From Spirochaetia bacterium (lineage in GTDB: Bacteria > Spirochaetota > Spirochaetia > SZUA-6 > Bin103): a stretch of DNA of 64,000 nt. This document shows positions 9,375 to 26,075 of this stretch, piece by piece; position 1 is the stretch's first letter, and every line of letters starts with the position of its first letter. Position numbers and translations under genes: made by a program. The notes under the pieces are model-generated. The model did no database searches. It was given only the letters and a program-made list of their open reading frames with translations, and was not told where the DNA came from. The stretch lies in NCBI GenBank assembly GCA_965203905.1, contig CBDBDQ010000005.1, forward strand, positions 6,432,001-6,496,000, given 5' to 3'.

Positions 9375-10415
9375 TTAGCGAAGACCGGGAATAAACTGCG
9401 CCGGGTTGAGCTGAATGTTGCCGCGGCGAATCTCGAAGTGGAGATGGGGGCCGGTAGAGCGGCCGGTCGATCCGATACGGCCCACGGTCTCGCCGCGACG
9501 TACCGTCTGGCCGCGACTCACGTAGATCCGGTCCAAGTGCCCATACAGCGATGAGTAGCCGGCCAGGAAATGGGACACGATGATGTAGTTGCCCAGCACC
9601 GCGCCGCGGCCGACCGCGGCCACCCGACCACCCTGCGTGGCGCGCACCGGCGTGCCGCGCGCTGCGGCAATGTCGATTCCGCGGTGGAAACTGCGGCGGC
9701 CGGTGAACGGATCGATACGCGGACCGAAGCGGGAGCTGACCCAACCGTTGGCGGGTCGGTCAAAGGCTGCGCCGATCGCCAGGGTCAACTCACGCCCCGA
9801 GTGCTGCACGCCCGGGAAGAACAACTCCATGGAGGGCCGCAGGAGGTCGCGGGTCACCCGGTTGGTGCTCAGCACCGTTTCCGGGAGCACTCCGTGGCGC
9901 AGGCTCAGTGCATCCAGATCGTTGCCGACGGGCAGAAAGATGCCGTCCTGGTTGGGAATCTGGATCAACTCGCCGACCGCCAGAAAGTGGACGCCAACCC
10001 CGGCGGTGCGATTCAGCGAAGCCACGGTATCGAGGGTGAGCCCGAAACGCTGTGCAATGACGCTGAAGTTGTCGCCGGCCTTGACCCGGTATTGCTTGAC
10101 GTCGAGCGGCAGTGGCTCCAGTTCCATGCCCCCGCGGAGGTCGCCATCGTTCGCGCTCACCGCCTGCGCTGAAGGGGCTGGCTCCAGGCGCGAAAACTCG
10201 ATCTGGATCGTGTCCAACCAGTCGCTCGGATAGTACAGGTACTCCTGCTCGTCATAGAGCGCCGCGCGCGTGGACCCGATGACGGCGACCTGCACGGCGA
10301 ACACGGTCAAGCCGCACGCCACCGCTGCCACCAGCCACCGGTGCACTCGTCGCCCCGTGCGCCGGCCACGGCGGCGGCGCCTGGTCACGTGCGGCTCTCC
10401 AACCTGCGCGGACAT
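9375..10415 (-). CDS. LysM + M23 family peptidoglycan endopeptidase
   Basis: Arg-rich N-terminus plus TM segment, LysM YRVKAGDNFSVIA, M23 motifs FHRGIDI and STGPHLHFEI. Confidence 0.92.
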   Translation of the reverse strand: MSAQVGEPHVTRRRRRGRRTGRRVHRWLVAAVACGLTVFAVQVAVIGSTRAALYDEQEYLYYPSDWLDTIQIEFSRLEPAPSAQAVSANDGDLRGGMELEPLPLDVKQYRVKAGDNFSVIAQRFGLTLDTVASLNRTAGVGVHFLAVGELIQIPNQDGIFLPVGNDLDALSLRHGVLPETVLSTNRVTRDLLRPSMELFFPGVQHSGRELTLAIGAAFDRPANGWVSSRFGPRIDPFTGRRSFHRGIDIAAARGTPVRATQGGRVAAVGRGAVLGNYIIVSHFLAGYSSLYGHLDRIYVSRGQTVRRGETVGRIGSTGRSTGPHLHFEIRRGNIQLNPAQFIPGLR

Positions 10416-10425
10416 CCGCAACAGA

Positions 10426-11745
10426 TTACTGCAGGTGCTCGGACGGGTCGACATGCGCTCCGTTCAGAAAGATCGAAAAGTGCAGATGGTCCTCGCTACT
10501 GTACCCGGTGTTCCCCATCTCGCCTACCTGCTGCCCCTGCCGGATGCGATCGCCGACCGTCACCAGTGCCTTGTCCAGGTGGGCGTACAACGTCTGGAAG
10601 CCTTCGGCATGACGCAGAATGAGGTAGCGGCCGTAGTTGCCGTTGTACCCCGCCTTTGCCACGGTGCCGCTCATCGCCGCGACCACGGAAGTTCCGCGCT
10701 GGTTGGCGATGTCGATGCCGTTGTGGAACTTGCGCAAGCCGGTAAAGGGGTCGTTGCGATAGCCGTACCCGGATGTTATGGGTCCGCGGGCGGGCCTGAC
10801 GAACAGTTGGCCGAGCACGCGGTTGCGGGCGTTCTCACTGAGCCCCACGCCCGGTATCAACAGGCTCTGTCCGGGAGTGATCGGCGAGCTCTCCACTTCG
10901 TTGATGTCGAGCAGAGCTGCCAGGCTCACCCCGTGACGCATCGCAATGCGGCTCGGGTTGTCGCCACGCCGCACCACGTAGCGGATTCCCGACCGGTTCG
11001 GAATGATCAGTTCCCGTCCCGGCTTCAGATCACGCTCACGCTTGATGTCGTTGAAACTGATAATCGTGTCCAGAGTGATGCCGAACCGGTCCGCCAGTGC
11101 GGCCAGAGTGTCCCCGGCGCCTACCTGGTAGCGCTCGTAGCGCACCCCCGGCTGGGCGCCTGGCGGAGTGTCCGCGCCGTCGGCGTCGGCAACCGACCTT
11201 GCGGTGGCAGCGGCGCCGATACTCCTCAGGTTGTCGAGCAGCGCCTTCTGCAGCCCGCCGTCGCCCGGTCGCAGCACTGCCCGCGTGCCGGCGCTGCCCA
11301 GGCCGGCCACCGCAGGAGCGACGAACTGGACCACCGCCGTGGCGCTGAAGGCGGCCGCTACCAGCAGCAGCCCCACCGCGACGGGAACGGGTCGGATCCA
11401 ACGCCGGGCCAGCAGGCCGCAACTCGCGCGCACACGGTTGAGGGTCTCGAACACTGCCGACCACGGGATGGCACGCCACAGGCGGTCCGTCTGGCCGCGG
11501 GACCGCGGCGGGTCGAGCAAGGCCGGCAGCCCGGAACGCAGCGGCGGCAGCGGAATCGCCGCCGTTGCACTCACGCTGAGATCCTCCATCCGGACGCCGG
11601 CGCGCTTATGACGGCTCGGCTGCTGCCTGATGCGGCTCGGTTGTTGGTTGTGCAGTGCCGAACGGGTGCCGTGCCGGTGGCGACGCCCGACTCTGCGCCG
11701 TCCGACGCGCTGGCCCCGCAAACCGGCGTAGGTGGCGTCACGCAT
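10426..11745 (-). CDS. LysM(x2) + M23 family peptidoglycan endopeptidase
   Basis: YQVGAGDTL and YVVRRGDNP LysM repeats, FHNGIDI and HLHFSI. Start uncertain (11745 or about 11589). Confidence 0.9.
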   Translation of the reverse strand: MRDATYAGLRGQRVGRRRVGRRHRHGTRSALHNQQPSRIRQQPSRHKRAGVRMEDLSVSATAAIPLPPLRSGLPALLDPPRSRGQTDRLWRAIPWSAVFETLNRVRASCGLLARRWIRPVPVAVGLLLVAAAFSATAVVQFVAPAVAGLGSAGTRAVLRPGDGGLQKALLDNLRSIGAAATARSVADADGADTPPGAQPGVRYERYQVGAGDTLAALADRFGITLDTIISFNDIKRERDLKPGRELIIPNRSGIRYVVRRGDNPSRIAMRHGVSLAALLDINEVESSPITPGQSLLIPGVGLSENARNRVLGQLFVRPARGPITSGYGYRNDPFTGLRKFHNGIDIANQRGTSVVAAMSGTVAKAGYNGNYGRYLILRHAEGFQTLYAHLDKALVTVGDRIRQGQQVGEMGNTGYSSEDHLHFSIFLNGAHVDPSEHLQ

Positions 11746-11754
11746 TCATTCTGC

Positions 11755-11782
11755 ATATCGACAACTCGTGCGCCGGTCATTA
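11755..11782 (-). promoter_or_regulatory. Candidate sigma28 (FliA/SigD) promoter upstream of the LysM-M23 pair
   Basis: Minus strand TAAT-N16-GTCGATAT versus consensus TAAA-N15/16-GCCGATAW, two mismatches. Confidence 0.4.
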
Positions 11783-12250
11783 CGTCCGAGTGGCTGGCTT
11801 GGTCGCCGTGCCGGGATCGGGCCGGTGCGGCACCAGACCGCGGTCGGCCGCCAGGTTGAGGATCAGCTCCACCTCGCCCGGGCTGGTAGCGAGGCGGTCA
11901 GCGATCACGGCGCTGGAGAATCCGAGGCCCCGTAGCCGCATCACCTGAGCCTCCCGCTCCCCGGCGCCACCGCAAAGGGCAGGCGCCGCCGCATGGCGCT
12001 GTTCCGGAACACTCCGCGACGCCCGTCGATCGGCCTCGCGCAGCGATTCGTCCAGACGCCGGATTCGATCTTCCAGCAGGGTGACGTTACGCTCCGCGGT
12101 GGCGTTCATCTCGGCTGTCAATTCGGCCACCCGAGAGCACAGCGCAGGCGCTTGGTCGAACCCGCGAAGTCTACGATCGAGATATCGTCGCAGCACCAGA
12201 AACAACACCGCAAGCCCGACAAGCTGCACCGCAACGAGGGCTAAGACCAC
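11780..12250 (-). CDS. Membrane-anchored coiled-coil protein with C-terminal HTH-like segment, downstream of fliA
   Basis: N-terminal TM, coiled coil (ELTAEMNATAERNVTLLEDRIRRL), and C-terminal GFSSAVIADRLATSPGEVELIL. Confidence 0.6.
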   Translation of the reverse strand: MVLALVAVQLVGLAVLFLVLRRYLDRRLRGFDQAPALCSRVAELTAEMNATAERNVTLLEDRIRRLDESLREADRRASRSVPEQRHAAAPALCGGAGEREAQVMRLRGLGFSSAVIADRLATSPGEVELILNLAADRGLVPHRPDPGTATKPATRT

Positions 12251-12260
12251 GCGCTAGCGC

Positions 12261-13073
12261 TCAAGTGATGCCACGTTTGAGGTTGGTCAGCTTGGCTCGC
12301 AGCCGGATGATCGCCTTGGTGTGAAGCTGCGACACGCGGGACTCGGTGACCTCCAGCACCTCGCCAATCTCGCGCAGTGTCAGCTCCTCGTAGTAATACA
12401 GCACGAGCACCCGTTGTTCCTTTTCCGGAAGCTCCTTGAGGGCCTCCAACATGACCCGCTTGATCTCATCCTTCTCTACGATGGTGTCGGGATTCAAGCT
12501 CGCCGGAGACTCCACGCTCTCCGCGATCGAGATGCGATCACTGTCATCGCCGCTGTGCCACAAGTCATTCAACGACATCACCGCGGTGCTGCTGATCTTC
12601 AGCAGCAACTGCTGAAATTCCTTCAGCGGCAGATTCATCTCGCGGGCCAGCTCGGCATCGGTCGCAGCGCGTCCCAGAGTAGCCTCCAGCTGGCGGACGG
12701 TATCCTCCACTTCGCGGGCTTTCTGGCGAACCGAGCGGGGCACCCAGTCATTGCTGCGCAGTTCGTCGAAAATCGCCCCGCGAATACGGGTCACGGCGTA
12801 GGTCTTGAACTTGACGTGCTTGGTGGGGTCGAACTTCTCGATGGCGTCGAACAGTCCGAACACGCCATATCCGACCAGGTCATCGAACTCCACGCTGCCG
12901 GGCATGCCCACCGCTACCTTTCCGGCCACGTACTTGACCAGCGGGGCATACTGTCGCACGAAGTAGTCACGGATTGCTATATCTTTATTAGCCCTATAAT
13001 TGTTCCACATTTCCTGTTCTTCGTCCTGGCTCAGCGGAGCGGTCGTCCTGCGCTCTTGGATACTAGTCGACAT
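12261..13073 (-). CDS. fliA: RNA polymerase sigma factor FliA/WhiG (sigma28)
   Basis: YAPLVKYVA, FKTYAVTRIRGAIFDELRSNDWVPRSVR, LYYYEELTLREIGEVLEVTESRVSQLH. Confidence 0.95.
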   Translation of the reverse strand: MSTSIQERRTTAPLSQDEEQEMWNNYRANKDIAIRDYFVRQYAPLVKYVAGKVAVGMPGSVEFDDLVGYGVFGLFDAIEKFDPTKHVKFKTYAVTRIRGAIFDELRSNDWVPRSVRQKAREVEDTVRQLEATLGRAATDAELAREMNLPLKEFQQLLLKISSTAVMSLNDLWHSGDDSDRISIAESVESPASLNPDTIVEKDEIKRVMLEALKELPEKEQRVLVLYYYEELTLREIGEVLEVTESRVSQLHTKAIIRLRAKLTNLKRGIT

Positions 13074-13328: not shown

Positions 13329-14603
13329 TCATGCGGTCACCCGAGAGGCTTCCTCGGAACGCCACGAGGAAGCGGCCACCGAATTCTGTGTGGCTCCGGT
13401 ACTGGCGCCGAATTGCTCCTCCAGCAACCTGCGATCGAGACGAAACCCATCCAGGCTCAGGAGCAAACGCAGGGCCGATGCCGGCGCGATGTCCTGCGGT
13501 ACCACTTGCCCATCGCAACAGTAGGAAAGCGGTTTCCGGACGGCTCCGAGGACCGACAGCAGATTTCCAATGGTGGCCGTCTCGTCGAGCTTGGTAACGA
13601 TTACACCATCGTACGCAAACGGCTCGAATTGACGCATGATCTCCTCCAGGTCGGCGTACTTCGTGGTCGCGCTTACCACCAGCTGAGTGGTGCCGTGGCG
13701 GCCCACGGCGTCGAGCAACGAACGTATCTCTGCCAAGTGCGTATAGTTGCCTGGACTGCGCCCCACGGTGTCAACGAAAATCACCTCGGCGTCCTGCCCC
13801 AGCGCGATGGCCTTCTTCAGCTCGTCGGCAGTTTCCGCCGCCGTAACCGGGATTCGCATGATCTCGCCGTAGGTCTCGATCTGCTGGCGTGCGCCGATGC
13901 GGTAGTTGTCGATGGTCACGATGCGCACCCGGCAATCCGGCGACTCGGCGCTGCCGCCGATCGCGTGCAGTGCCGCCAGCTTGGCGATGGTCGTCGTCTT
14001 GCCCACGCCGGTGGGTCCAACCACGGTGCAGATGCGCGGTCCGGCGGCAGCGCCGACAGCCTCCGCCAGCGGGGCGGCCAGCCGCACCTCGCGGCCGATC
14101 TGGCACGCCACGTACTGATGCACCGCGGGCAGATCATCCAGTTTCGACAACGGGAACTCCGCCCGCACCTGCTCGATCAGCCGCCGCCGCACGTGCGCGG
14201 CGAAGTCGTTGCGCAGCAGCAACGCGTCGAGAGCGTCCAGTTGCGGATGCCCGGTCTGGCGGGGGGCGATCGCGGCTCCTTCGGGGAGCGACTCATCCAG
14301 ACGGGAGCGCAGTGCGGCGACCTCGTCCGCCAGCCGTTGCAGCCCGGTGCCGGACGCCGCACGATGCAGGATCTTGCGCTTTTCGCCGTCCAGGTCGGTC
14401 ACTTCGGGAGTTCCGTGCTCCGGCGTCGACGGTTCCACGAAACCGGTGATCTCCACACCGTCGCGGGCGAACAGCCCCAGCACACCACCCATCCGTACCG
14501 GACGATGGGAGTGAATACGGGCCTCGGGTCCATACAACCGCTTCATGGTCGCCAGGGCTTCGCGGGGTGTCGCACCCTGAATCGTGAAGTACTCCATCGG
14601 CAA
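13329..14603 (-). CDS. flhF: Flagellar biosynthesis SRP-family GTPase FlhF
   Basis: [33 protein letters not shown] and GQVVPQDI. Confidence 0.95.
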   Translation of the reverse strand: MPMEYFTIQGATPREALATMKRLYGPEARIHSHRPVRMGGVLGLFARDGVEITGFVEPSTPEHGTPEVTDLDGEKRKILHRAASGTGLQRLADEVAALRSRLDESLPEGAAIAPRQTGHPQLDALDALLLRNDFAAHVRRRLIEQVRAEFPLSKLDDLPAVHQYVACQIGREVRLAAPLAEAVGAAAGPRICTVVGPTGVGKTTTIAKLAALHAIGGSAESPDCRVRIVTIDNYRIGARQQIETYGEIMRIPVTAAETADELKKAIALGQDAEVIFVDTVGRSPGNYTHLAEIRSLLDAVGRHGTTQLVVSATTKYADLEEIMRQFEPFAYDGVIVTKLDETATIGNLLSVLGAVRKPLSYCCDGQVVPQDIAPASALRLLLSLDGFRLDRRLLEEQFGASTGATQNSVAASSWRSEEASRVTA

Positions 14604-14605
14604 CC

Positions 14606-16591
14606 TCAGCGGCCGTCTCCCAGCCGCACCTCGGCAACCGACTGCAAGGCGACCTCAGGCGCCACCTCGGTAGTTGCCAGACACACCAGATGGGGGAGCT
14701 CCCGGCGGGTGGTTGCGCGTACCCGGACGCGGGCCTCGGAGGAACTCAGTACCGCGGGCCGGACTCCCTGTCGCGAGGCCCGCGCGAGGGTCCCGGACAG
14801 CGCCTCGATCCAGCGCCGCCGCGCCCCCGCTTCCATGCCGTGCGCCGCGTCAGCGCCGGCCAGAAGCTGCCGTTCGCACTCCGGTGCGAGGGTGATCACG
14901 CGCAGCACTCCGTCGCTGCCGGCATGCTGCAGGCTGATCTGGCGGGCCAGGGTGCGCCGTACCTGTTGCACCAGGAAGGCTGGGTCGCGGTTTGCGGACG
15001 CCCAATCTGCCAGCGTCTCCAGAATCGCCGGCAAGTCACGGATCGCTACCTGCTCCGCCAGCAGTCCCTGCAGCACGCGCCGGATTTCGCCGATCGACAA
15101 CACAGCGGTCACTTCTTCCACGGTAGTGGGATAATCCGCGCGCAGGCGGTCCAGCAGCGACCGCACCTGGTCGCGTCCCAACAGCTCCGCGGCGTGTCCA
15201 CGCAACAGCGCGCCGAGCCGGGCAACCAGAGCGTCGTTACTTCCGATCCGCCCGCGGCCCCGGCCCGCCTCGATGCCACGGATCTTCAGCAGATACTCCG
15301 ACGGCGCCAACTGCAGGTTGTCGCAAACCCGAACGTGCGGCACCGGGACGCCCCACTCCTGAGCCATCTGCGCGCGCAGGCGGGCGATGCGATCGAGCAA
15401 GTCGCCACCTGACTGGCCCTCGGCCATCGGCACCAGGGCGAGGCCCAGCTCCAGGCGCAGCGGCTCCGGAGGCGCCCCCGCCGCGGCGCCGGCGCCGTCG
15501 GCGCGCGCGGCGTACGCCGTGGCGGCCGCGCCCGCCACGGCGTACGGTTCGCCGGCGCCGGAATCCGCCTCACCTCCGGCGGCAGCCTGGGTCGCGCGCT
15601 CACCGGGTCGCGCCCGAGCCACGGCGTAGCCCAGCGCCGCGACTGCCGCCGCCAGCGGCAGCAACAGCAGCGGCGGGAACCCCGGCAGCAGCGCCAACAC
15701 CGCCAGGAACGCTCCGGTGATGTAGAAGGGGCGATCGTAGAACGAGAACTGGCGGGCCAGGTCGCGGCCGAACGAAACGCCGGAGATCGCTCGTGTGACG
15801 ACGATGCCGGTAGCGGTTGAGATCAGCAGCGCCGGAAGCTGGGTCACCAGACCGTCGCCGATGGTGAGGGTGGCATAGGTCTGCGCCGCCGCGGCCAGGG
15901 ACTCGCCATGTACGCTCACCCCCATGATCAGGCCGCCCGCGAGATTGACCAGGGTGATGATGATGGCGACGCGGACGCTGCCCGAGACGAACTTGGAAGC
16001 ACCATCCATGGCGCCGTAGAAGTTGCTCTGCCGCTGCAGCTCCTGCTTGCGCTGCTGAGCCTGAACCTCGGTGAGCAGGCCGGCGTGATACTCCGCGTCG
16101 ATCGCCATCTGCCGGCCCGGCAGGGCATCCAGGGTGAATCGGGCCGCTACCTCCGCCACCCGCGTCGAGCCCTTGGTAATGACGACGAACTGTACCGCGA
16201 TGATTATGGTGAAGATGACGAGACCGATCAGGTAGCCGGCGACGCCGGACGCCCCTACCACGAAACTGCCGAATGCACGCACCACGCGCCCGTCGAAGGC
16301 CGCTCCCTGCGCCAGGATGAGGCGGGTCGAGGACACGTTGAGGGCCAGGCCGAAGACCGTGGCCAGCAGCAGCAGGGTGGGAAACACCGTGAACTCCAGG
16401 GTGTCGCGGGCGTACAGCACGATGAGAATCACCAGCAGGCTGAGGCAGATGTTGAGCAGCATGAACAGATCGAGCAGCACCCCCGGCAAGGGGATGAGCA
16501 GCATCAGGATCGCCACGCACACGAACACCGCCACCAGAACGTCGCCGCGCTGGCGCCACCGCTCCCCGACACCGTGCCTCACGTCGGCCAT
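14606..16591 (-). CDS. flhA: Flagellar export gate protein FlhA with internal in-frame deletion in the cytoplasmic domain
   Basis: FHIPEP region RVAEVAARFTLDALPGRQMAIDA...FYGAMDGASKFV and IGDGLVTQLPALLISTATG. ATG 16591 with GGAGG RBS. Confidence 0.93.
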   Translation of the reverse strand: MADVRHGVGERWRQRGDVLVAVFVCVAILMLLIPLPGVLLDLFMLLNICLSLLVILIVLYARDTLEFTVFPTLLLLATVFGLALNVSSTRLILAQGAAFDGRVVRAFGSFVVGASGVAGYLIGLVIFTIIIAVQFVVITKGSTRVAEVAARFTLDALPGRQMAIDAEYHAGLLTEVQAQQRKQELQRQSNFYGAMDGASKFVSGSVRVAIIITLVNLAGGLIMGVSVHGESLAAAAQTYATLTIGDGLVTQLPALLISTATGIVVTRAISGVSFGRDLARQFSFYDRPFYITGAFLAVLALLPGFPPLLLLPLAAAVAALGYAVARARPGERATQAAAGGEADSGAGEPYAVAGAAATAYAARADGAGAAAGAPPEPLRLELGLALVPMAEGQSGGDLLDRIARLRAQMAQEWGVPVPHVRVCDNLQLAPSEYLLKIRGIEAGRGRGRIGSNDALVARLGALLRGHAAELLGRDQVRSLLDRLRADYPTTVEEVTAVLSIGEIRRVLQGLLAEQVAIRDLPAILETLADWASANRDPAFLVQQVRRTLARQISLQHAGSDGVLRVITLAPECERQLLAGADAAHGMEAGARRRWIEALSGTLARASRQGVRPAVLSSSEARVRVRATTRRELPHLVCLATTEVAPEVALQSVAEVRLGDGR

Positions 16592-17727
16592 GCAGCCTCC
16601 GTGCCACCGGTGTGGCGCACTGCCGCCAGAAGCCTGGCCGCCGGCTGGTAGAACGGTTCCGGAATCGGATCCCCGACGGCGACCTCCCGCCACACCGCTT
16701 CCGCCAGCGTTCGGTCCTCCACCACGGCTACGCCGTTGGCCGCGGCCAGCGCTCCGATCCGCTGCGCGGCGGTCGCCATCCCCTTGGCTACCACCACCGG
16801 TGCGCGCATGGTCGTGCCGTCCCAGCGCAGCGCCACCGCGCGTCGTTCACCGTGGGCAATCACCACGTCGGCCGCCGCCACCTGAGCGCCCATGGTGCGG
16901 CGCAGCAGCTCGCGCATGCGGCCCCGCAGCCGATCCCGGACCGCCGGGTCGCCCTCCTGGCGGCGGCGTTCGTCGCGTACCTCCCGCGGTGACATCCGCA
17001 ACCGCAGCCGATGCCGATAGCGCCGGAACAGGTAGTCGACCAGGGCCAGCGCCAGCAGCGCGACCGCCGTCTGGGCGCCGCAACGCAGGGCCGCGCGTGC
17101 CAGCACGGCGCCGGCCACGGCCAGCGACGTGCCGGCCAGCGTCTCCAGCACGGTGCCGATGGTGGACACGGCAGCGGCGCCGACGACCACTACCTTGAGC
17201 AGTTCCTTGACCAGGCTGAAGACCGCCTCTGCCGAGAGCGCGCGCTGCCGCAAGCGCCTCCAGCGCGGCACGATACGGCTCAGGTCGGGCACCACGGGGC
17301 GCACGGCGACTCGCCGTCCACCCTGCACCAGGTTTCCCAACAAGGCGCCCGCCACGCCGACCGCCGCCACCGGCAGCGACAGCCGGGCGACATAGCTGAA
17401 CGCCGCCGGCGCAATCGCGGCCGGCTCCGGAACCTGCGCGGTTCCGATTGCGGCCAGGAAGTGGCGTACCATCGCGCCGGTGCTGGCGATCAGCGAGGAG
17501 CCGAGCAGCGCCAGGGCGGTGACTCCGCAGAGCAGCACGAGCGCTGCCGTCAGCTCGGGAGAGTGGAACCCCTGTCCGGTCTCCCGCGCCGTGCGCATGC
17601 GCAGTGCGCTGGGTGGCTCGGTGCGGATCTCGTCAGCCTCCGCGAACCATTGCAGGTGCACATGGGCATAGCCCGCGGCGAACGCGCCCGCAACGGCCGT
17701 TGCGGCGGTGGAGCAGCCGGCGCTCAC
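16579..17727 (-). CDS. flhB: Flagellar export switch protein FlhB, lacking the NPTH motif
   Basis: HLQWFAEADEIRTEPP, four TM segments, LRMSPREVRDERRRQEGDP, APVVVAKG, GDPIPEPFYQ. GTG start overlaps the fliR stop. Confidence 0.9.
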   Translation of the reverse strand: MSAGCSTAATAVAGAFAAGYAHVHLQWFAEADEIRTEPPSALRMRTARETGQGFHSPELTAALVLLCGVTALALLGSSLIASTGAMVRHFLAAIGTAQVPEPAAIAPAAFSYVARLSLPVAAVGVAGALLGNLVQGGRRVAVRPVVPDLSRIVPRWRRLRQRALSAEAVFSLVKELLKVVVVGAAAVSTIGTVLETLAGTSLAVAGAVLARAALRCGAQTAVALLALALVDYLFRRYRHRLRLRMSPREVRDERRRQEGDPAVRDRLRGRMRELLRRTMGAQVAAADVVIAHGERRAVALRWDGTTMRAPVVVAKGMATAAQRIGALAAANGVAVVEDRTLAEAVWREVAVGDPIPEPFYQPAARLLAAVRHTGGTEAAWPT

Positions 17728-18581
17728 GGTGCCCCCACCTGCGGCACCGAGCCGCCCGGCGGCAGTGTCCGCGCTGCGGCGCCCAACTCCGCGAGGAGCC
17801 GGCGCAGTTCCACGAAGGCGCCATCGATCACCGCCGCCGCCGCATCGAGCAGCAGCGGCAGGGTGAGCAGCAGGAGCACCAGTCCTGCACCCAGCGAGAC
17901 GGGCAGCCCCAGCATCAGCAGATTCATCTGCGGCGCTGCCTTGGCCAGCAGGGCGAGCGCGATCGATACCAGCAGCAAGGCGCCGAAGATCGGCAGCGCG
18001 ATGGTCAGGGCGGTGCTGAACAGCCGGGCCAGACTGCCGGCTGCGCGCTGCAGCAGCAGCCCTGCGCCGCGCAGGGCACCGGCCTCCAGGCTGATCACCA
18101 GATCGGCCGCGCGCAAGGCTTGAAACGAGCCCGCGACGCCCACCAGCAGCAGCCGGTGCAGCCCGCCGACCGAGAGGAACACCAGTACCGCCAGCAGTGA
18201 GAACACCTGGCTCAACAGGGGTGACCGATGGCCTGACAGCGGATCGAACAGCTCCGCGACGCCGAAGCCGACCGACAGCGATATGAACTGCCCGGCCAGG
18301 CGCAGCGCGGCGAAAGCCAGATACACCAGAAAGCCGAGCAGGGCACCGAGCAGAGCCTCGCCCAGCAGCAACAACCCGTACTGCATGCCCGATGGCGGCA
18401 GCGGATAGCCCGCGGCCGCTACGCCGGGCAGCGCGATCAGAGCGATGAACACGGCCAGACCGATCTTTCCCACCTGCGGAATCGCGCGCGACGAGAGCAG
18501 CGGAGCTACCTGGATCATGGCCAGCACCCGCGCCAGCACCAGGAGTCCCACCCCCAGGTCGTCGAGCAGGCCGCGGATCAC
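17724..18581 (-). CDS. fliR: Flagellar export gate protein FliR
   Basis: AGQFISLSVGFGVAELFDP and LLAKAAPQMNLLMLGLP. Confidence 0.93.
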   Translation of the reverse strand: MIRGLLDDLGVGLLVLARVLAMIQVAPLLSSRAIPQVGKIGLAVFIALIALPGVAAAGYPLPPSGMQYGLLLLGEALLGALLGFLVYLAFAALRLAGQFISLSVGFGVAELFDPLSGHRSPLLSQVFSLLAVLVFLSVGGLHRLLLVGVAGSFQALRAADLVISLEAGALRGAGLLLQRAAGSLARLFSTALTIALPIFGALLLVSIALALLAKAAPQMNLLMLGLPVSLGAGLVLLLLTLPLLLDAAAAVIDGAFVELRRLLAELGAAARTLPPGGSVPQVGAP

Positions 18582-18624: not shown

Positions 18625-18894
18625 TCATCGCGCCATCCCCGGTATGCTCTCGAACAGGCGCCGGGTGAAGTCCAGCATGGAGCCGCCGAGCCAGGGGCCC
18701 AGCAGCAGTGCGGTTCCGAGGACGGCGAAGATCTTCGGCACGAACGTGAGCGTCTGCTCCTGGATCGACGTGGTGGCCTGCAGAACCGAGATCACGAGTC
18801 CCACCAGCACACTGATCAGCAGCATCGGACCCGCCATCAACAGTAGTTGCAGCACGGCGTCCCGTGCCAGGCCGGCTACCGCGCCCAGCGTCAC
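18625..18894 (-). CDS. fliQ: Flagellar export gate protein FliQ
   Basis: VGLVISVLQATTSIQEQTLTFVPKI. GTG 18894 with GGAGG RBS; 89 aa. Confidence 0.95.
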   Translation of the reverse strand: MTLGAVAGLARDAVLQLLLMAGPMLLISVLVGLVISVLQATTSIQEQTLTFVPKIFAVLGTALLLGPWLGGSMLDFTRRLFESIPGMAR

Positions 18895-18961
18895 GAACGG
18901 CCTCCGCGCAGCCGCCGGCGGCCACCGTGCACTGCCCCGGGTGCCGTTTTGCCGTGGCACC

Positions 18962-19750
18962 TCACCGGAAGCTCCCTATCACCTGCATGGTGAGCAGGTC
19001 CCAGCCGTCCACCAGGACGAACAGGATCAGTTTGAACGGCAGCGAGATGAGCACCGGGGGCAACACGATGATGCCCATCGAGATCAGGGTCGTCGCCACC
19101 ACCATGTCGATGATGACGAACGGGATGAAGATGAGAACGCCGATCTTGAACGCCACCGTCAGCTCATGGAGGATGAACGCAGGGATGAGAATGTAGGTCG
19201 GCACGTCGGCCCGGGTGTTCGGCTTGGGCAGCTCACGCATGCGCATGAACAGACGGATGTTGTCGGCGTCGTCGCCAAGCTGGCGGAACATGAATTCGCG
19301 CACCGGCACTTCCGCGCGCTGCAGCAGCTGGGTGCTGCTCAGCTCGCCGCGGGTAAACGGCTGCAGCGCGTCGCGATTGATCGCCTCGAACGTCGGCCAC
19401 ATGATGAACGCGGTAAGGAACAGGGCGACGCCCATCAGCACCTGGTTGGGCGGCATCTCCTGCAGCGACAACGCTCGCTTGACGAAGTGGAACACGATCG
19501 CCAGGCGCAGAAACGAGGTGGTCAGGATCATGATCGAGGGTGCCAGGGAAAGCACGGCCAGGAGCACCAGGAGCTGCAGGGACAGCGCCAGTTCCTGATT
19601 CGACTGCGCGTCGCGCAGAGTCAGATCCAGAAACGGAATGCCGGGCGCGGAGACGGCCTCCGGCGCCACCGACTGAGCCGCGGCCGGCAGCGGTCCGCAC
19701 AGCGCTGCGGCCAGCAGCGCCGTGGCGATCAACAGGCTAGTCCGCGGCAC
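18962..19750 (-). CDS. fliP: Flagellar export gate protein FliP
   Basis: Signal peptide, LSLAPSIMILTTSFLR, PPNQVL, LIPAFILHEL, ISLPFKLILFVLVDGW. Confidence 0.96.
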   Translation of the reverse strand: MPRTSLLIATALLAAALCGPLPAAAQSVAPEAVSAPGIPFLDLTLRDAQSNQELALSLQLLVLLAVLSLAPSIMILTTSFLRLAIVFHFVKRALSLQEMPPNQVLMGVALFLTAFIMWPTFEAINRDALQPFTRGELSSTQLLQRAEVPVREFMFRQLGDDADNIRLFMRMRELPKPNTRADVPTYILIPAFILHELTVAFKIGVLIFIPFVIIDMVVATTLISMGIIVLPPVLISLPFKLILFVLVDGWDLLTMQVIGSFR

Positions 19751-20465
19751 CGACTTCCCCCGGTTGCCGCCGGCGGCGGAGGCGCTGCAGCCGCTCCTGC
19801 TGGCGCTGCAGGAAGTCGGCGGCAGCCGCGGTTGCGGCCGCCGCGCCCGATGCCGCGCCCGGTGCCGCGCCGGGTGCGGGACCGATGTCGGCCAGCAGAT
19901 CGGCAAAGCGGCCTCCCGCTGCGCGCGGCTGCGCGTGATTCGGTGTCAGCGCTTGGATGCTGTCCTGATCGGTTATCTGCGCGATGAGGTTGAGGGTCTG
20001 GTCCGTAGCACCGATCAGGTACACGCCGCCTCCCACCTGCACCAGGTGCAGGTGGCGGCTGCCACCGAGCGACCGGGAACCGAGCAGGGCGATGCGGTCA
20101 GCGTTGCCGACGCTGGCCCGGGAGCTGCGCCTGATGAGCCGGAACAGCAGGTAGATGGCGCCGAGCACCGCCGCGAGCACCGCGACCATACGCACGAAGT
20201 CACCGGTGGAGACCGCCGCCGGCACGGCCGGCACCGCACGGTTCTCCGCCGCCCGCGACAGTGGCGTCAGGTCCGCCGCCGTGCCGGACGCATCGGCTTC
20301 CTGGGCAGACGCGGCACCCACCACGCCCAGCCACGCCACGGCCAACAGCAGCGCCGTCGCAACAGGTAGGTATGTCCGCCGTGCACGCGTACGACGCGCG
20401 CCACGGTGTGCTGCAGTGTACAGGTTGTTCCCCTCCCAGGAACGTAGCCGAACCACGCTCATCAC
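19737..20465 (-). CDS. fliO: Flagellar biosynthesis protein FliO (FliZ in spirochaete nomenclature)
   Basis: Lies between fliN and fliP. TM segment followed by IALLGSRSLGGSRHLHLVQVGGGVYLIGATDQTLNLI. Start uncertain. Confidence 0.82.
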   Translation of the reverse strand: MMSVVRLRSWEGNNLYTAAHRGARRTRARRTYLPVATALLLAVAWLGVVGAASAQEADASGTAADLTPLSRAAENRAVPAVPAAVSTGDFVRMVAVLAAVLGAIYLLFRLIRRSSRASVGNADRIALLGSRSLGGSRHLHLVQVGGGVYLIGATDQTLNLIAQITDQDSIQALTPNHAQPRAAGGRFADLLADIGPAPGAAPGAASGAAAATAAAADFLQRQQERLQRLRRRRQPGEVGAAD

Positions 20466-20626: not shown

Positions 20627-21004
20627 TCACGTTCCCCCGTCCTCGCGGAGTGCCATTGCAGGCTCCGCGCGGCCGACGATCTCCGTCACGCGCACGCCGA
20701 AGTTGTTGTCGATCACCACCACCTCGCCACGTGCTATCGGCTTGTGGTTCACCAGGATTGCGACCGGCTCGCCGGCGAGCTGGTCGAGTTCGATCACCGC
20801 CCCCGCGTTGATGTCGAGCACCTCGCGGATGGTTCGCGTGGTGCTGCCGAGCTCGACCGTCATGCGCAGATCCACGTCCATCAGCAGGCCGATGTCCGCC
20901 TGCTCCGAGGTTGCTGCCGAAGCCTGTTCGAAGTCGGGAAGCTGCACCGGCCGCACCTCGGTCGCGGCGGCGCCGGCGTCATGCAGGGCCCGGTCGGCGC
21001 TCAC
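20627..21004 (-). CDS. fliN: Flagellar C-ring protein FliN (short, SpoA domain only)
   Basis: IGLLMDVDLRMTVELG...LDQLAGEPV...IARGEVVVIDNNFGVRVTEI. GTG overlaps the fliM stop. Confidence 0.92.
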   Translation of the reverse strand: MSADRALHDAGAAATEVRPVQLPDFEQASAATSEQADIGLLMDVDLRMTVELGSTTRTIREVLDINAGAVIELDQLAGEPVAILVNHKPIARGEVVVIDNNFGVRVTEIVGRAEPAMALREDGGT

Positions 21005-22002
21005 GATACCGCCTCCGCCGGTTTCTCCAGCGGCTTCACCACCTGTACCGCGAAGCGCTTGCCGACCACTCCGGGAAGGCAGCGGAACTTGGGTTTGCCC
21101 GCCACCTTCAGGTATAGCTCGTCGCCCGGGCCACGGTCGTCGAGACGAATGAGGTCTCCCTTCTTCAGCCCCAGGACACGCGGCAACGGCAGCAGCGCGC
21201 TGCCGATCTCGGCGCTGATGGAGACCGGCACGCCCTGCAGCGCCTGGCGCACCGTCGCGTGACGCCCGGCCGCTCTCCGCGGCTCGCTTCCGAACGGGTG
21301 GTGAGGCGCGCCGCGGTCGCCAATCGACTTCAGGGTGAGGCAGGAGACGGCGAGCTGCAGCTCCCCCTCCACGCCGCCGATCCGGGTGCCGAACGCGACC
21401 CGCACCAGCATTCCTGCGGGAATCGACGCCGCCGCCGTCCGGTCGCGGCGCCGGCAGTACTCCAGCCGCGGCCGAATCGGGACCAGTGGCTGCCACGCCG
21501 ACTGCAGATCAGGAAGCAGGCTGGAGATACGGTTCTGCAACACCGACGCTTCGATCTCGCTCAGTTCGCGAGACGGCACGGTGGGCACGCCCTGGCCTCC
21601 GAGCAGGCGGTCGATCAGGGAATAGGCGAAGCGATGGTCGAGCGCAAGCACGGCGACGCCCGCCAGCGGGTCCAGCGCCACTGCGGCCAGCACCACGGCG
21701 CGCGCCAGCGCAGTGCGGAACTCCTCACCGCTGATCTGTGCCACGGAGTGAGGGACGATCTCGACCCGGGTGCGGGTCTGATTGGCGAGGGACTCGGCGG
21801 CCAGTGCGGCAAACGTCTCGTGCACGGTGGCGAGGGCGCCGACCTGGCGCTCGGAGAGACGGCCGGCGAACCCGAAGTCGTATGCGTCTGGCGTCATGCC
21901 ACTGACCGGCGACCCGGTACTTGCCGATAGCACGGCACTGCTGCTGGAGGCGGCGCAATCCAGCAGCGAGACATGACCGCGACGCGGGCCTGCATCAGCC
22001 AC
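21001..22002 (-). CDS. fliM: Flagellar C-ring protein FliM, lacking the N-terminal CheY-binding peptide
   Basis: YDF, VHETFA, IDRLLGGQG, RELSEIE and a C-terminal SpoA domain (LKKGDLIRL...KFRCLPG...AVQV). Start 22002 (GTG with RBS) or 21897. Confidence 0.88.
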   Translation of the reverse strand: MADAGPRRGHVSLLDCAASSSSAVLSASTGSPVSGMTPDAYDFGFAGRLSERQVGALATVHETFAALAAESLANQTRTRVEIVPHSVAQISGEEFRTALARAVVLAAVALDPLAGVAVLALDHRFAYSLIDRLLGGQGVPTVPSRELSEIEASVLQNRISSLLPDLQSAWQPLVPIRPRLEYCRRRDRTAAASIPAGMLVRVAFGTRIGGVEGELQLAVSCLTLKSIGDRGAPHHPFGSEPRRAAGRHATVRQALQGVPVSISAEIGSALLPLPRVLGLKKGDLIRLDDRGPGDELYLKVAGKPKFRCLPGVVGKRFAVQVVKPLEKPAEAVS

Positions 22003-22119
22003 GCGCTCCCTCCCATGTGACGACCGGGAATTCGCACCGCTCCAAGGGTGGGGAGCATGCGCGCCCGGTTCTCACCCCCGTCGCCCGCCGCGTGGGACGG
22101 GACGTCGGGGAAGACTCGC

Positions 22120-22148
22120 AGGTTACGGCAAAGCGAAAAAAGGTGCAA
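22120..22148 (-). promoter_or_regulatory. Candidate sigma70 promoter upstream of fliM
   Basis: Minus strand TTGCAC-N17-TAACCT. Confidence 0.5.
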
Positions 22149-22221
22149 CCGCTACGCCGCAACGGCGCACGGCGGCACCGGGAAGCCCACGGCGCGTGCC
22201 GACCGTAGCGTGGGCCGTCAG

Positions 22222-23898
22222 TTACTTCTCGACCAGCCACGAGCGCAGCGTTCGCGCAGCATCCGCAGGCCGCTCGCGTGCCAGCCTGGCCGCGTTCTGT
22301 TGCATCTGCGCCTTGCTTCGCAAATTGGGGGGTGAAGCCGCCCAGCCGCCGCGGGCGGCGGCGCTCAACCGTGCGGGATGCATGCCGGAGCGCTGCGCGG
22401 CGTGCGACCGCCGGTGCCGCGCCCACAACCAGGAACCGAACGCCGTCAACAACAGCGCCGCCGCCCCGGCAACCGCCAGCGGCAGCATCCGCAACAGCTC
22501 CGCCTCGCGCCGCAGCACGGCGTCCTCCTGCTGGAACTGCCGCATGCGGTCGAACTGCAGGTGCTCGACGGTAACCGAGTCGCCACGCTGCGGGTCCCAG
22601 CCGATGGCGTCCTGGATCAGCAGCGTAGCCTTGCGCAAATCGTCCTCGGAAACCGGCGTGTACTCGCGCTGCACGCTGCCGTCGGCATGCAGCTGGATCT
22701 GGCCGTCGGGCCGGAACGTGGTCCGCCACACGCCATCGAGTGCGACACTTACGGTGATCCGGTTGATCGCCCATGGGCTCTTCTCCGTAACCGTGTTGCG
22801 GCGGTTGACCACCTCGTTGCGGGACACCGAGCTGCGCTGGTACGCGCCCGCGCCGGGACCACTGCCGGCACCGGCCGCCACCGGCGCAGACTCCTGAGCG
22901 GTCACCGGCCGCGTCTCCTCCTCGCGTTGTTCCGAAATCGTAATGGAGGGGACCTTGACCGACTCGTCGCTCTCCGTGTGCGGATTGTCGGCCCGCATGG
23001 CGATTGGAAAGTGCTCTTCGGTCTGGGTGGTTTCGGCCGACAGATCGAGATCGATGTCGAGCCGTACGATCTGCACTCGATCGAGCGTGAAGATCTTGCC
23101 CAGAGCGGTAAGGATCTCTCGCTTGTAGCGTTGCTCCAGGTCGAACTTGGTATTGAGCTGGCGCTCCACCAGAGCCGCGCGGCCCTGTCCGGCAAGGTCT
23201 CCGACGTCATTCACCTGGACCCCGCGGGGATCCAGGATCACGATGTTTTCCGCCCGCAGGCCGGCGACGGCAAACTGCACCAGGCGCTGGATGCCGGCGA
23301 CCTTCTTACGATCCTCGAGGATATCGGAGCCCAGTCGCGGGGTGATGATGATCGACGCCGTAGTCGGGTTCTGATCCTCCGCGAACAGCTCGGTCTCGGG
23401 CACCACCAGGGTGACGTTGGCGGCCACGACGTCGTCCAGGGCGGTAATGTGCTGCTCCAGGTTGCGGGTCAGGGCGCGCTGCAGGTTGACGTTGCGCTCG
23501 AAGTCCGTCATCGAGAAACGGTCCACCTCGAAGACGGAAAAGGGATCGGTATGCGGCGGCATCAGGTCCTCACGAATCAGGATTGCGCGCAGCCGCCGCG
23601 CGTTCTCCTGATCGGCCACCAGGATGCGGTTGTCGGAGGCGATCTGGTATTCGGCGCTCTCCTGATCAAGCCGTGCCGCGATCCGCAGGAGGTCCTGCTG
23701 ATCGCCGATTGGGGCACCGATAAGGGCAACCATGTGCCTGCCGGCGGCGATGGGCCCATCGCCGCGAGAGGCGCCGAGCAGTGTCAATGCGATGATCGAA
23801 GTGACGACCAGCGCGCTCAGCGACAGTTTCTGAAGCTGACTCCAACGACCCCAGAGGCCGGCCGCCCGCTGCCTCAGGCGTGCCAGGAGTTCGTTCAT
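22222..23898 (-). CDS. fliF: Flagellar MS-ring protein FliF
   Basis: TDFERNVNLQRAL, ANVTLVVPETELF, TTASIIITP, IQDAIGWDPQRGDSVTV, C-terminal ARERPADAARTLRSWL. ATG 23898 with GGGAGG RBS. Confidence 0.94.
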   Translation of the reverse strand: MNELLARLRQRAAGLWGRWSQLQKLSLSALVVTSIIALTLLGASRGDGPIAAGRHMVALIGAPIGDQQDLLRIAARLDQESAEYQIASDNRILVADQENARRLRAILIREDLMPPHTDPFSVFEVDRFSMTDFERNVNLQRALTRNLEQHITALDDVVAANVTLVVPETELFAEDQNPTTASIIITPRLGSDILEDRKKVAGIQRLVQFAVAGLRAENIVILDPRGVQVNDVGDLAGQGRAALVERQLNTKFDLEQRYKREILTALGKIFTLDRVQIVRLDIDLDLSAETTQTEEHFPIAMRADNPHTESDESVKVPSITISEQREEETRPVTAQESAPVAAGAGSGPGAGAYQRSSVSRNEVVNRRNTVTEKSPWAINRITVSVALDGVWRTTFRPDGQIQLHADGSVQREYTPVSEDDLRKATLLIQDAIGWDPQRGDSVTVEHLQFDRMRQFQQEDAVLRREAELLRMLPLAVAGAAALLLTAFGSWLWARHRRSHAAQRSGMHPARLSAAARGGWAASPPNLRSKAQMQQNAARLARERPADAARTLRSWLVEK

Positions 23899-23980
23899 GT
23901 TCCCCCTCCCAAGCTGCACGACGGCGCCGCGAGACCCGGCGGGTAACCGGCTCCCGTTGCGCCTGATTCGCGCATCGTCT

Positions 23981-24144: not shown

Positions 24145-25539
24145 CTACAGGATGTAGCGGGTAAGGTCGCGGTCTTCGATGATCTTGGTGAGCCGCTCGT
24201 TCACGTAGTCGGGAGTGATGGTGACGCTCTGTCCCTGCAAATCCGGTGCGCTGAAGGAGAGCTCCTCCAACAGCAGCTCCATGATCGTGTGCAGGCGTCG
24301 GGCGCCGATATTCTCGGTGCTGCGATTCACCTCGGAGGCCAGCTCCGAGATCCGGTCAACTGCAGCCTCGGTGAACTTCAGCGTTACCTCCTCCGTGGCC
24401 AACAGCGCCGTGTACTGGGTGATCAATGCATTCCGCGGCTGCGTCAGGATGCGCTTGAAGTCGTCGCTTCCCAGGGCCGCGAGCTCCACTCGGATCGGGA
24501 AGCGCCCCTGCAGCTCGGGGATCAGATCCGCGGGCTTGCTCATGTGAAAGGCACCCGCGGCGATGAACAGGATGTGGGCCGTGTCGACGGTGCCCCACTT
24601 GGTGGTAACGGTGCTCCCCTCCACGATTGGCAGGATGTCGCGCTGCACCCCCTCGCGCGACACGTCGGCGCCGCCACGGCTGTCCTTCGCCGCTACCTTG
24701 TCGATCTCGTCGAGGAATATGATGCCCATCTGTTCGACCCGCTCGATGGCCAGTTCCGAAACCCGGTCCTTGTCCACCAGGCGATCGATCTCGTCCGCCA
24801 TCAACACCTGCCGCGCGCGCCGCACCGGCACCTTCTTCTTCTTCTTGCGACCGCCGAACAGGTTGCCGAGGTTGCCCAGGTTGATATCCATCTCCTCGAA
24901 GCTCTGTCCCGAGAAGATCTCGATCGCCGGACCGCTGCTGTCGGACACGTTCACCTCCACCAGCTTGTCATCGAGCTGTCCCGCGCGCAGCCGCTCGCGA
25001 AACTTGGTCACGGTCCCGGTCTCCGGCGCGATCGCCGCCGATTCGGCTCGCTTCACCACGGACGCCTCGGGCGCCGGTGGCGCCGGCGGCGGCTTCGGTT
25101 TTGGCTGGCGCAGGCCCGGCAGCAGCAACTCGAGCAGCTGTTCTTCGACGCGGGTCTCGGCCTCCTCCTGCACCCCGGCCTGCAACTCCCCCTTGACCAT
25201 GGAGATGGCCACCGAGGTCAGGTCCCGCACCATGGACTCGACGTCACGACCCACATAGCCCACCTCGGTGTACTTGGTGGCCTCCACCTTGACGAAGGGA
25301 GCCCGGCACAGTTTCGCCAAGCGGCGCGCGATCTCGGTCTTGCCCACCCCCGTGGGGCCGATCAGAATGATGTTCTTCGGCGCTACCTCGTCGCGCAGAT
25401 CGGGCGGCAGCTTGCGCCGCCGCAGGCGATTGCGCAGCGCAATCGCGACCGCTTTCTTGGCCTTCTCCTGCCCGACGATGTAGCGATCCAGTTCCTGCAC
25501 GATCTCCTTGGGACTGAGCTGGTCCAGATCGACGCTCAT
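24145..25539 (-). CDS. hslU: ATP-dependent protease ATPase subunit HslU
   Basis: [57 protein letters not shown]. Confidence 0.98.
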
Positions 25540-26075
25540 GACAGCTCCTCGACGACGATTTCCGAATTGGTATAGACGCAGATGTCGGCGGCGATCCGCA
25601 TCGAGCGCATCGCGATGTCGCGCGCGCTCAGTGCGGAACTCTCCAGATACGCACGCGCCGCGGCCAATGCGTAGTTGCCCCCGGAGCCGATGGCAATGAC
25701 CCCGTGGTCCGGCTCCAGCACATCACCGTTGCCGGAGATGAGCAAGGTCTGGCGCCGGTCCGCTGCCAGCAGCAGCGCCTCCAGCCGGCGCAGAATGCGG
25801 TCCGAACGCCAATCGCGAGCCAGCTCCACGCAGGCGCGGGTCAGGTCACCGCCGTATTCCTTGACCTTGCCCTCGAAGCGGTCGAACAGGGTGAACGCGT
25901 CGGCCGTACCGCCGGCGAAGCCGACGAGGATGGAGCCGTCGGCAACGGTGCGTACCTTGCGGGCGCTGCCCTTCAATATGGTGGCATCCAGGGTCACCTG
26001 GCCATCACCGGCCATTGCCACCGCCGCGTCGCGGCGAACGGCTACGATAGTGGTTCCGTGCATGCTGCTGTTCAT
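25536..26075 (-). CDS. hslV: ATP-dependent protease peptidase subunit HslV
   Basis: HGTTIVAV (catalytic Thr), [34 protein letters not shown]. Confidence 0.97.

Follow-up and report, generated by a model that had tools for sequence, protein, structure and literature searches.

We analyzed a 64,000-nucleotide stretch of the genome of a Spirochaetia bacterium (the window; G000:C5:6432001-6496000, guanine plus cytosine (GC) content 63-71%) and identified in it a reduced flagellar gene cluster in which the export-gate subunit FlhB carries HGER at the position of the NPTH autocleavage motif. The genome has a size of 7.99 Mb, consists of five contigs and is 98.7% complete. Pfam searches with 40 open reading frames (ORFs) of the window gave the minus-strand order dprA, xerC, hslV, hslU, fliF, fliM, fliN, fliO, fliP, fliQ, fliR, flhB, flhA, flhF, a gene for a FliA-like sigma factor and two genes for LysM-M23 peptidases. 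The flhB gene and the parts of it discussed below are:

16579..17661, minus strand: flhB, GTG start, export-gate subunit; the sole match to PF01312 in the genome
16843..16854, minus strand: HGER codons, at the position of N-P-T-H
16612..17016, minus strand: FlhB linker and cytoplasmic domain FlhB_C (residues ~216-350), retained without a cleavage site

The cleavage site of FlhB in the window and in its relatives

The flhB frame encodes 360 residues, starts with VHLQWFAEADE, of which HLQWFA is common to the N-termini of relatives, and contains ...AADVVIAHGERRAVALRWDGTTMRAPVVVAKG... in its product. Pfam Bac_export_2 (PF01312) matches the full protein with an E-value of 4.1e-80 and 269.9 bits (cut-off 24.4), residues 13-348 aligning to profile positions 3-335 of 335. 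An earlier reading of this DNA, made from its sequence only, had proposed that HGER replaces NPTH without gaps at 16840-16860. This was borne out: H270-G271-E272-R273, encoded by CAC GGT GAA CGA (16854-16843, inside that interval), stands gap-free under the N-P-T-H of relatives in a MAFFT alignment of 28 FlhB proteins (alignment A1). In HMMER alignments HGER lies opposite NPEH or NPTH in the solved full-length FlhB chains 12du_A, 36hu_K1 and 8z5s_x, and full-length FlhB chains are also the best solved homologues of the protein (E 4e-38). From alignment A1 an AlphaFold2 model was built; with a mean predicted local distance difference test score (pLDDT) of 83.2, it predicts long helices at residues 35-72, 80-114, 144-175 and 180-220 and a strand-helix domain at 266-352. 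HGER is placed where strand 266-270 turns into strand 274-279, a region with a local pLDDT of ~86-94, and FlhB_C is thus predicted to retain its fold with the loop at a beta-turn. The full-length profile match, the gene order fliP-fliQ-fliR-flhB-flhA and the predicted membrane and cytoplasmic architecture are those of the FlhB family; the NP(T/E)H loop between the first two strands of the C-domain is absent. With no Asn at this site FlhB would be unable to cleave itself and would remain a single chain, and we are confident that the protein of the window does not autocleave. The residues of the hydrophobic docking pocket of FlhB_C, which we take to be A286, P287, A341 and L344 in Salmonella numbering, align to A, P, A and L of the window protein (alignment to the 383-residue chain 36hu_K1), which would fit a retained docking surface.

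As relatives we used 40 genomes of the same order in addition to the genome of the window: ten further members of its genus (g1), 13 genomes of the sister genus (g2) and, as outgroup, 17 that represent the seven other families. A search with the window protein found FlhB in 30 of the 41 genomes, namely its own, nine of the ten g1 genomes, three of the 13 g2 genomes and all 17 outgroup genomes. The outgroup site reads NPTH in 16 genomes and NPVH in one. Among the ten g1 sequences (own included) none has N-P, and the site reads HGER (own and G009), HGGR, DGRR, GGAR, AAAR, DPAR or, three times, DAAR. Arg occupies the fourth loop position in all ten and positions 1-3 vary; around this variable loop the flanks ADVVI, AVALRWD and APVVVAKG are conserved, the AP of APVVVAKG in 10/10. 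Motile relatives sharing the loss, which the sequence-only reading had named as a point to be checked, were not encountered: the relatives without N-P are themselves without flagellin and rod/hook genes. The three g2 proteins end after the membrane domain (261-280 amino acids, matching the query only up to residue 251), with W-P-x at their ends as in g1. Since flhA starts ~40 bp downstream of this short FlhB, the C-domain is truly deleted there, and g2 shows, as far as gene content goes, that this domain is dispensable. Any FlhB is missing from 10/13 g2 genomes.

The autocleavage motif had been called near-invariant in FlhB/SctU. For N-P this held, as it is present in 144 of the best 150 clusters retrieved from 1.84 billion proteins clustered at 50% identity, and in 17/17 outgroup genomes; the His is less constant, with NPxH in 117 of these 150 clusters. 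Three clusters without N-P, P0002 (HGRR), P0003 (DQAG) and P0007 (DAAR), share 47-64% identity with the query and are evidently members of the clade that holds the FlhB of the window, and a fourth (P0032) matches the membrane domain only. A contig search of other genomes yielded only two distant related loci (36-37% identity). Two further clusters without N-P, P0075 (GASG) and P0109 (SPRE), are 33-39% identical to the query and unrelated to the window clade; they may be independent cases of the same phenomenon.

An error in sequencing or assembly, or a mis-called frame, could also have produced HGER, and the assembly has an estimated contamination of 7.9%. However, the frame stays open for 360 codons and matches the family over its full length, G009 arrives at HGER through other codons (CAC GGC GAG CGC), N-P is also missing from eight further species, and P0002, P0003 and P0007 from public data are without it too. 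As the loss is common to congeners, HGER is not an error, and we regard an artefact as having a negligible chance. Sequencing data were also inspected for a restored NPTH. The depth over bin 16832-16885 was 12 in contigs of run X1, which may stem from the source sample, and 28.7 in contigs of run X2 from another study, the runs sharing 0.95 (X1) and 0.41 (X2) of the sampled sequence words. Among the 40 differences listed out of 99, none changes a letter at 16802-16932, and none of the contig pieces listed (41 further pieces lie outside the list) spans 16837-16890. No restored NPTH was thus seen among the differences listed, which, coming from contigs only, lends weak support to the assembled letters. 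Of the sampled words, 0.09-0.12 are also present in a number of metagenomes from sponges, corals and reefs, generated by different studies; no claim on habitat is drawn from this.

Retained and missing flagellar genes

The other retained genes of the cluster are:

22222..23919, minus strand: fliF (MS ring), Pfam YscJ_FliF and YscJ_FliF_C, directly after hslU
21001..22002, minus strand: fliM, Pfam FliM and FliMN_C
20627..21000, minus strand: fliN, C-terminal SpoA domain only, Pfam FliMN_C (E 2.6e-24); start not fixed
19737..20465, minus strand: fliO, Pfam FliO (E 1e-12)
18962..19906, minus strand: fliP, Pfam FliP (E 2.5e-71); longest ORF, the true start may be later
18625..18960, minus strand: fliQ, Pfam Bac_export_3 (E 7.9e-28); longest ORF, the true start may be later
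17724..18581, minus strand: fliR, Pfam Bac_export_1 (E 1.3e-56)
14606..16591, minus strand: flhA, Pfam FHIPEP (E 7e-199); ORF open from 16693
13329..14603, minus strand: flhF (SRP-type GTPase), Pfam SRP54, 43% identical to FlhF of G037; no flhG after it
12261..13073, minus strand: FliA-like sigma factor gene, Pfam sigma-70 regions r2, r3 and r4, 75% identical to the sigma factor of the G037 operon

Translation of flhA likely starts at the ATG at 16591, so that the gene and the end of flhB overlap; the alignments of relatives with the long ORF begin at about residue 28-46. A further ORF at 21995-22774 ('orfX') was discarded, as it overlaps fliF in another frame.

G037, a flagellated relative of the same order, was used as comparison genome; at 42% GC it marks the order as compositionally broad. 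Its operon runs xerC, hslVU, flgB, flgC, fliE, fliF, fliG, fliH, fliI, fliJ, a gene of unknown function, fliK, flgD, flgE, flbD, motA, motB, fliL, then fliM, fliY, fliO-R, flhB, flhA, flhF, flhG, another gene of unknown function, fliA and fapA, and further on cheW, cheA and cheY. Relative to this conserved synteny the window has three clean deletions: flgB-fliE, fliG-fliL (which spans fliHIJ, fliK, flgD, flgE and motAB), and flhG with one gene. The intervals left measure 225 bp (hslU to fliF) and 220 bp (fliF to fliM). Six other g1 genomes have the same reduced order, as does G003 as far as its short contig extends (flhB through the first M23 gene). The g2 genomes are in addition without fliM, fliN, flhF and fliG; where they have fliF, it shows a gap inside, and its C-terminus is not matched.

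Of the deleted genes, fliG has an intact copy elsewhere, at G000:C5:6224406-6225587 (plus strand), ~207 kb from the cluster; its EHPQTIAL motif is kept, and so are the N, M and C domains (match of G037 FliG by tblastn at C5:6224525-6225574, 53% identity). It stands isolated among unrelated genes, including an RRM-domain gene and a DUF1223 gene, with a V-type ATPase operon a few kb away. The gene occurs in 10/10 g1 and in 0/13 g2 genomes. In a FliG tree, which is distorted by three untrimmed rows with long N-terminal extensions, seven g1 sequences form one clade (97/99) that is attached by a short branch (0.26, versus 1.14 for the main paralogue group) to a polytomy containing canonical FliG, so g1 fliG likely derives from the operon copy. 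With FliG, MS ring, C ring and export gate are all present: FliF, FliM, FliN, FliO, P, Q, R, FlhB and FlhA in the window, and FliG elsewhere. The C-terminus of FliF binds FliG, and this segment is kept in the window FliF and similar to that of G037. Judged by sequence, the contacts within the ring are kept: the FliF C-terminus is there, as is FliG with its three domains and EHPQTIAL. From FliM the N-terminal peptide LSQDEIDQLL of G037 is missing, presumably the motif that binds CheY-P, and FliN lacks the CheC/CheX-like N-terminal part of FliY (alignment to the 397-residue FliY of G037).

The whole genome was then searched for the missing genes. Using 29 proteins of the G037 operon as tblastn queries, matches were obtained only for FliF, FliM, FliN, FliO, FlhB, FlhA, FlhF and FliA at the window, and for FliG. 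There were no high-scoring segment pairs (HSPs) anywhere in the genome for FlgB, FlgC, FlgD, FlgE, FliE, FliK, MotA, MotB, FliH and FliJ of G037, and CheA and CheW were likewise not found by tblastn with the G037 proteins. FliI candidates (28-33% identity) were rejected as ATP-synthase-type subunits, one pair of which lies beside V-type ATPase genes. Genome-wide Pfam searches, with G037 or all 17 outgroup genomes yielding matches to each family as positive control, gave no match among 13 scored candidates for Flagellin_N (3-5 matches in each of the 17 outgroup genomes), none among 34 for Flg_bb_rod and none among 35 for Flg_hook (FliK C-domain). FliE, T3SS_ATPase_C, MotB_plug and the P-ring protein FlgI also had no match in the genome; FlgH was not among the families searched. 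T3SS_ATPase_C, FlgI, Flg_hook, FliE and MotB_plug were equally without match in G001 and G005, and in G009 apart from one marginal match to T3SS_ATPase_C (E 0.002, 20 bits). The loss of fliK that the sequence-only reading had assumed is thus confirmed by both searches. Its argument against simple relocation of the missing genes stands for the seven families with no match genome-wide, which excludes such relocation; fliG alone did relocate. A second FlhB or an FlhX-like gene, for which it had advised a search, was also not present in the genome (PF01312: one match among five scored candidates). An extra small FlhX-like match, to query residues ~244-353, occurs in 12 listed outgroup genomes and in no g1 or g2 genome of the same FlhB search.

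Across the relatives, Flagellin_N and Flg_bb_rod are found in 1/10 g1, 0/13 g2 and 17/17 outgroup genomes. The single g1 genome is G002 (81% complete, 510 contigs), which carries hslU-flgB-flgC on one contig and also has an FlhX-like gene and three genes of flagellin type. Identity to the window HslU is 75% for G002, 82-88% for other g1 genomes and 66-69% for the g2 and outgroup genomes examined; G002 is either a basal flagellated member of g1 or partly mis-binned.

Filament, rod, hook, FliK, stator, P-ring and the FliH/FliI/FliJ complex of a complete flagellum are therefore not found in this genome. Nor does the genome have an own SctU paralogue or a T3SS_ATPase_C match as expected for an injectisome, secretin and needle genes being outside the searches made. 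By its gene content the system is neither a flagellum nor an injectisome, and we have little doubt that the organism forms no flagellum. A working flagellum with unrecognizably divergent axial, stator and ruler proteins, in which FlhB would switch without cleavage, is very improbable. Such a flagellum would account for the presence of MS ring, C ring, gate, FlhF and FliA-like sigma factor, and a weak FlgM-like ORF (24.4 bits) falls just under the cut-off of 25. The same Pfam families that match the flagellated controls, however, give nothing in this genome, the 225 bp (hslU-fliF) and 220 bp (fliF-fliM) at the conserved-synteny positions leave no room for such genes, and the chemotaxis-input parts of FliM and FliN are lost along with CheA and CheW.

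Of the 41 genomes, 40 encode the FliA-like sigma factor, among them 13/13 g2, most of which are without flagellar genes. Retention of the gate for export of the anti-sigma factor FlgM was considered as an explanation and is not supported. The FlgM-like ORF (G000:C5:1825516-1825947, plus strand, ~95 amino acids from Met) reaches 24.3-24.4 bits against the Pfam cut-off of 25, and FlgM-like matches also occur in g2 genomes with a gate and in three of the four gate-less g2 genomes tested. The matches in gate-less genomes, together with the sigma factor in all g2, indicate that a sigma/FlgM pair is independent of the gate.

Upstream of the flagellar genes, the order dprA-xerC-hslV-hslU (24145-28211, minus strand) is conserved across the whole order, and presumably resembles codV-clpQ-clpY-...-flgB of Bacillus and hslUV-flgB of Borrelia. 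The sigma factor gene is followed by a weak DUF6115-like ORF (11780-12250; 19 bits, under cut-off) and by the LysM-M23 genes at 10426-11745 and 9375-10454 (minus strand). Those g1 and g2 genomes that were examined repeat the order of sigma factor gene and two M23 genes; around the outgroup clusters, the sequence fetched contains no M23 match. This linkage resembles the link between sigma-D and autolysins in Bacillus subtilis.

Constraint on the retained genes and competing explanations

Ratios of nonsynonymous to synonymous divergence (dN/dS) were calculated with the Nei-Gojobori method (NG86) over seven closer g1 species pairs with a synonymous divergence of 0.3-0.8. Protein identity to G037 (in %) was compared between G031, a flagellated relative (first figure), and the window (second figure). 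The ratios, rough in absolute terms, and the identities were as follows:

HslU (control): dN/dS 0.08-0.13; identity 75 versus 69
FliA-like sigma factor: dN/dS 0.05-0.14, the most constrained gene of the cluster; identity 80 versus 75
FliQ: dN/dS 0.11-0.21; identity 70 versus 59
FliR: dN/dS 0.19-0.28; identity 58 versus 49
FliP: dN/dS 0.24-0.31; identity 78 versus 68
FliF: dN/dS 0.22-0.32; identity 63 versus 47
FlhF: dN/dS 0.17-0.25
FlhA: dN/dS 0.23-0.36; identity 76 versus 47
FliM: dN/dS 0.36-0.45; identity 84 versus 35
FlhB: dN/dS 0.27-0.53; identity 61 versus 39
FliG: identity 92 versus 53

The linker and C-domain of FlhB alone gave 0.22-0.55 over the same seven pairs. In five pairs of flagellated relatives the dN/dS of FlhB was 0.09-0.20, and in g2, where the membrane domain is all that is left of the protein, it was 0.46-0.70. 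By these rough ratios constraint on FlhB appears to be relaxed about two- to four-fold, but not abolished. No stop codon or frameshift was present in the 11 retained genes of eight g1 genomes compared by synteny (the window, G001, G003 in part, G004, G005, G007, G009 and G010). Divergence of FlhA_C, FliG and FliM is far above that of FliPQR, and within FlhA the transmembrane part is 63% identical to G037 and the C-domain 35%. Together with the parts missing from FliM and FliN, this marks features for partner binding outside the FlhB loop as lost in parallel.

Taken with the gene content, these results make it probable that flhB encodes the gate subunit of a motility-less flagellar relic which is still kept for some other role, and we think it likely that selection maintains this relic. 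Purifying selection on FlhB_C and on the other retained genes leads us to read the assembly of MS ring, C ring and gate as still made and used. The lineage has deleted flgB-flgC-fliE, the fliG-fliL block and flhG from an ancestral fla-type operon, and has lost all genes for rod, hook, filament, P-ring, stator, ATPase and chemotaxis that were searched for. In the scenario that we propose, without early and late substrate classes and the FliK ruler, the switch at N-P would no longer have been needed, and the four loop residues, freed from selection, could then have drifted. The uncleaved single-chain FlhB would fix the gate in one specificity state. As to the present function, we have low confidence in either of two possibilities, a proton-driven, ATPase-independent exporter to the periplasm, or a membrane or polar scaffold placed by FlhF; that the relic serves protein export at present is a tentative suggestion. 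Somewhat more doubtful still is the full picture of a minimal flagellum-derived machine made up of a FliF/FliG/FliM/FliN ring, a FliOPQR-FlhA gate and an FlhB that always stays uncleaved. It would be placed by FlhF, be devoid of rod, hook, ATPase, ruler and switch, and might either export proteins to the periplasm by proton-motive force or organize the pole or envelope of the cell. If this picture is true, the g2 FlhB without C-domain would represent the minimal core with which a type III export apparatus can function.

Several observations weigh against a relic in use. The periplasmic gate of FliPQR is described as closed until FliE assembles (bioRxiv 10.1101/2025.02.07.637169), and the absence of FliE makes an open export channel doubtful. 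FlhB is the least constrained gate gene, with a ratio of 0.46 in the only unsaturated pair (G004-G006, dS 0.09), and its N-terminal 33 residues are near or above 1 in one subclade, on only 15-16 codons. The absolute ratios are rough because NG86 underestimates dS at the ~85-90% GC of third codon positions found here. The sole contig from an RNA library is 181 nucleotides long, covers 16407-16587 only, has seven differences and may reflect carry-over of DNA. Most of g2 has lost the whole system (10/13 without FlhB), which fits slow decay equally well. In G002 the full flhB was not assembled, so that the motif may have been lost before or after the axial genes.

Neutral decay, in which the cluster would be a functionless leftover with the loss of NPTH as its first visible damage, is the strongest rival explanation, although in our judgement an unlikely one. 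The constraint measured would then be a lag, or would reflect selection against toxic misfolded membrane proteins. It would account for a dN/dS of FlhB two to four times that of flagellated relatives and for RNA matches limited to the one 181-nucleotide contig. It would also account for the stepwise further loss in g2, in which FliM, FliN, FliG and FlhF are gone, FliF is internally deleted, FlhB is reduced to its transmembrane domain, and in 10/13 genomes nothing is left. However, the retained genes are all open despite the synonymous divergence of 0.3-0.8, each has a dN/dS below 1, conservation of FliPQR nearly reaches that of the housekeeping control, and fliG survived its relocation with three domains in 10/10 g1 genomes. 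These points argue for a relic that is kept, rather than for one that is disappearing.

Comparison with known export systems

In Salmonella, self-cleavage of FlhB_C takes place between the Asn269 and Pro270 residues of NPTH, and the N269A variant exports no late substrates (PMC7911332); early substrates dock on a hydrophobic pocket of FlhB_C (PMC8983047). N-P cleavage of the N269A and P270A proteins is given as absent or slow (PMC7911332), and the FlhB of the window lacks both Asn and Pro. By analogy with FlhB(N269A), we infer that the gate of the window is unable to switch. The Salmonella proteins are laboratory point mutants in a complete flagellum and yield polyhooks, whereas the window has four natural replacements in a loop that varies between species. 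Since FliK, hook and filament genes are absent from its genome, there is nothing to switch between. The sequence-only reading had proposed that a gate without the motif could not build a filament; losing the motif is more plausibly a result of the disappearance of all substrate classes than the reason why there is no filament. Proteins of the FlhX/YlqH type are small, stand alone and correspond by homology to FlhB beyond the cleavage site; most of the flagellated relatives have one. As the genome of the window has none, a separate C-terminal piece cannot stand in for the missing cleavage.

Autocleavage of FlhB/SctU has been treated as near-universal in type III export gates and is usually studied by point mutants. 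What we describe is in all likelihood a genus-wide uncleavable FlhB inside a relic of ring and gate, with a sister genus that has no FlhB_C altogether; in the open-access literature searched we found no description of a natural FlhB without N-P or of this gene set. With the gene order unchanged, these genomes form a natural series from a complete flagellum with NPTH, through a relic with an uncleavable FlhB_C and an FlhB consisting of the membrane domain only, to nothing. The series separates the contributions of FlhB_TM, FlhB_C and cleavage, and reveals which parts are under selection after substrates have been lost. FliO homologues in some non-flagellated organisms are noted in a FliO survey, which makes no mention of Gemmatimonadota. 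A survey of Gemmatimonadota scored flagella as present at >60% of genes and had none in host-associated and marine metagenome-assembled genomes (PMC10581226). Surveys that score the fraction of flagellar genes in this way would label genomes such as the present one 'non-flagellated' and overlook the relic.

Among partial flagellar systems, Buchnera keeps genes for hook-basal body, rod and FliI, whereas the genome of the window has inner-membrane and cytoplasmic rings only. Buchnera aphidicola is host-restricted and non-motile, and its partial flagellar apparatus, basal bodies without filaments, is thought to export. The case is mentioned in PMC7688988. Lysobacter enzymogenes OH11, a bacterium without flagella, expresses flagellar export genes for protein secretion and for the control of twitching (PMC7277350, PMC7688988). 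It retains flgC, flgD, flgE, flgG, flgH, flgI and fliI and is mainly without fliC, according to PMC7688988, a paper in which NPTH does not occur; the genome of the window lacks axial proteins, FlgI and the ATPase. In Bacillus subtilis, the fliOPQRflhBA set (CORE) has been proposed as the platform of nanotubes (PMC6456723). [quoted passage not shown] Those CORE and hat observations come from fully flagellated species with a normal FlhB, and nearly the CORE set together with FliF is what g2 keeps; the relic is not linked to nanotubes or hats by the present data. The cluster described here provides a concrete candidate for a non-motility role of the flagellar core, a role that the reports on Lysobacter, Buchnera, nanotubes and hats have all raised as a question.

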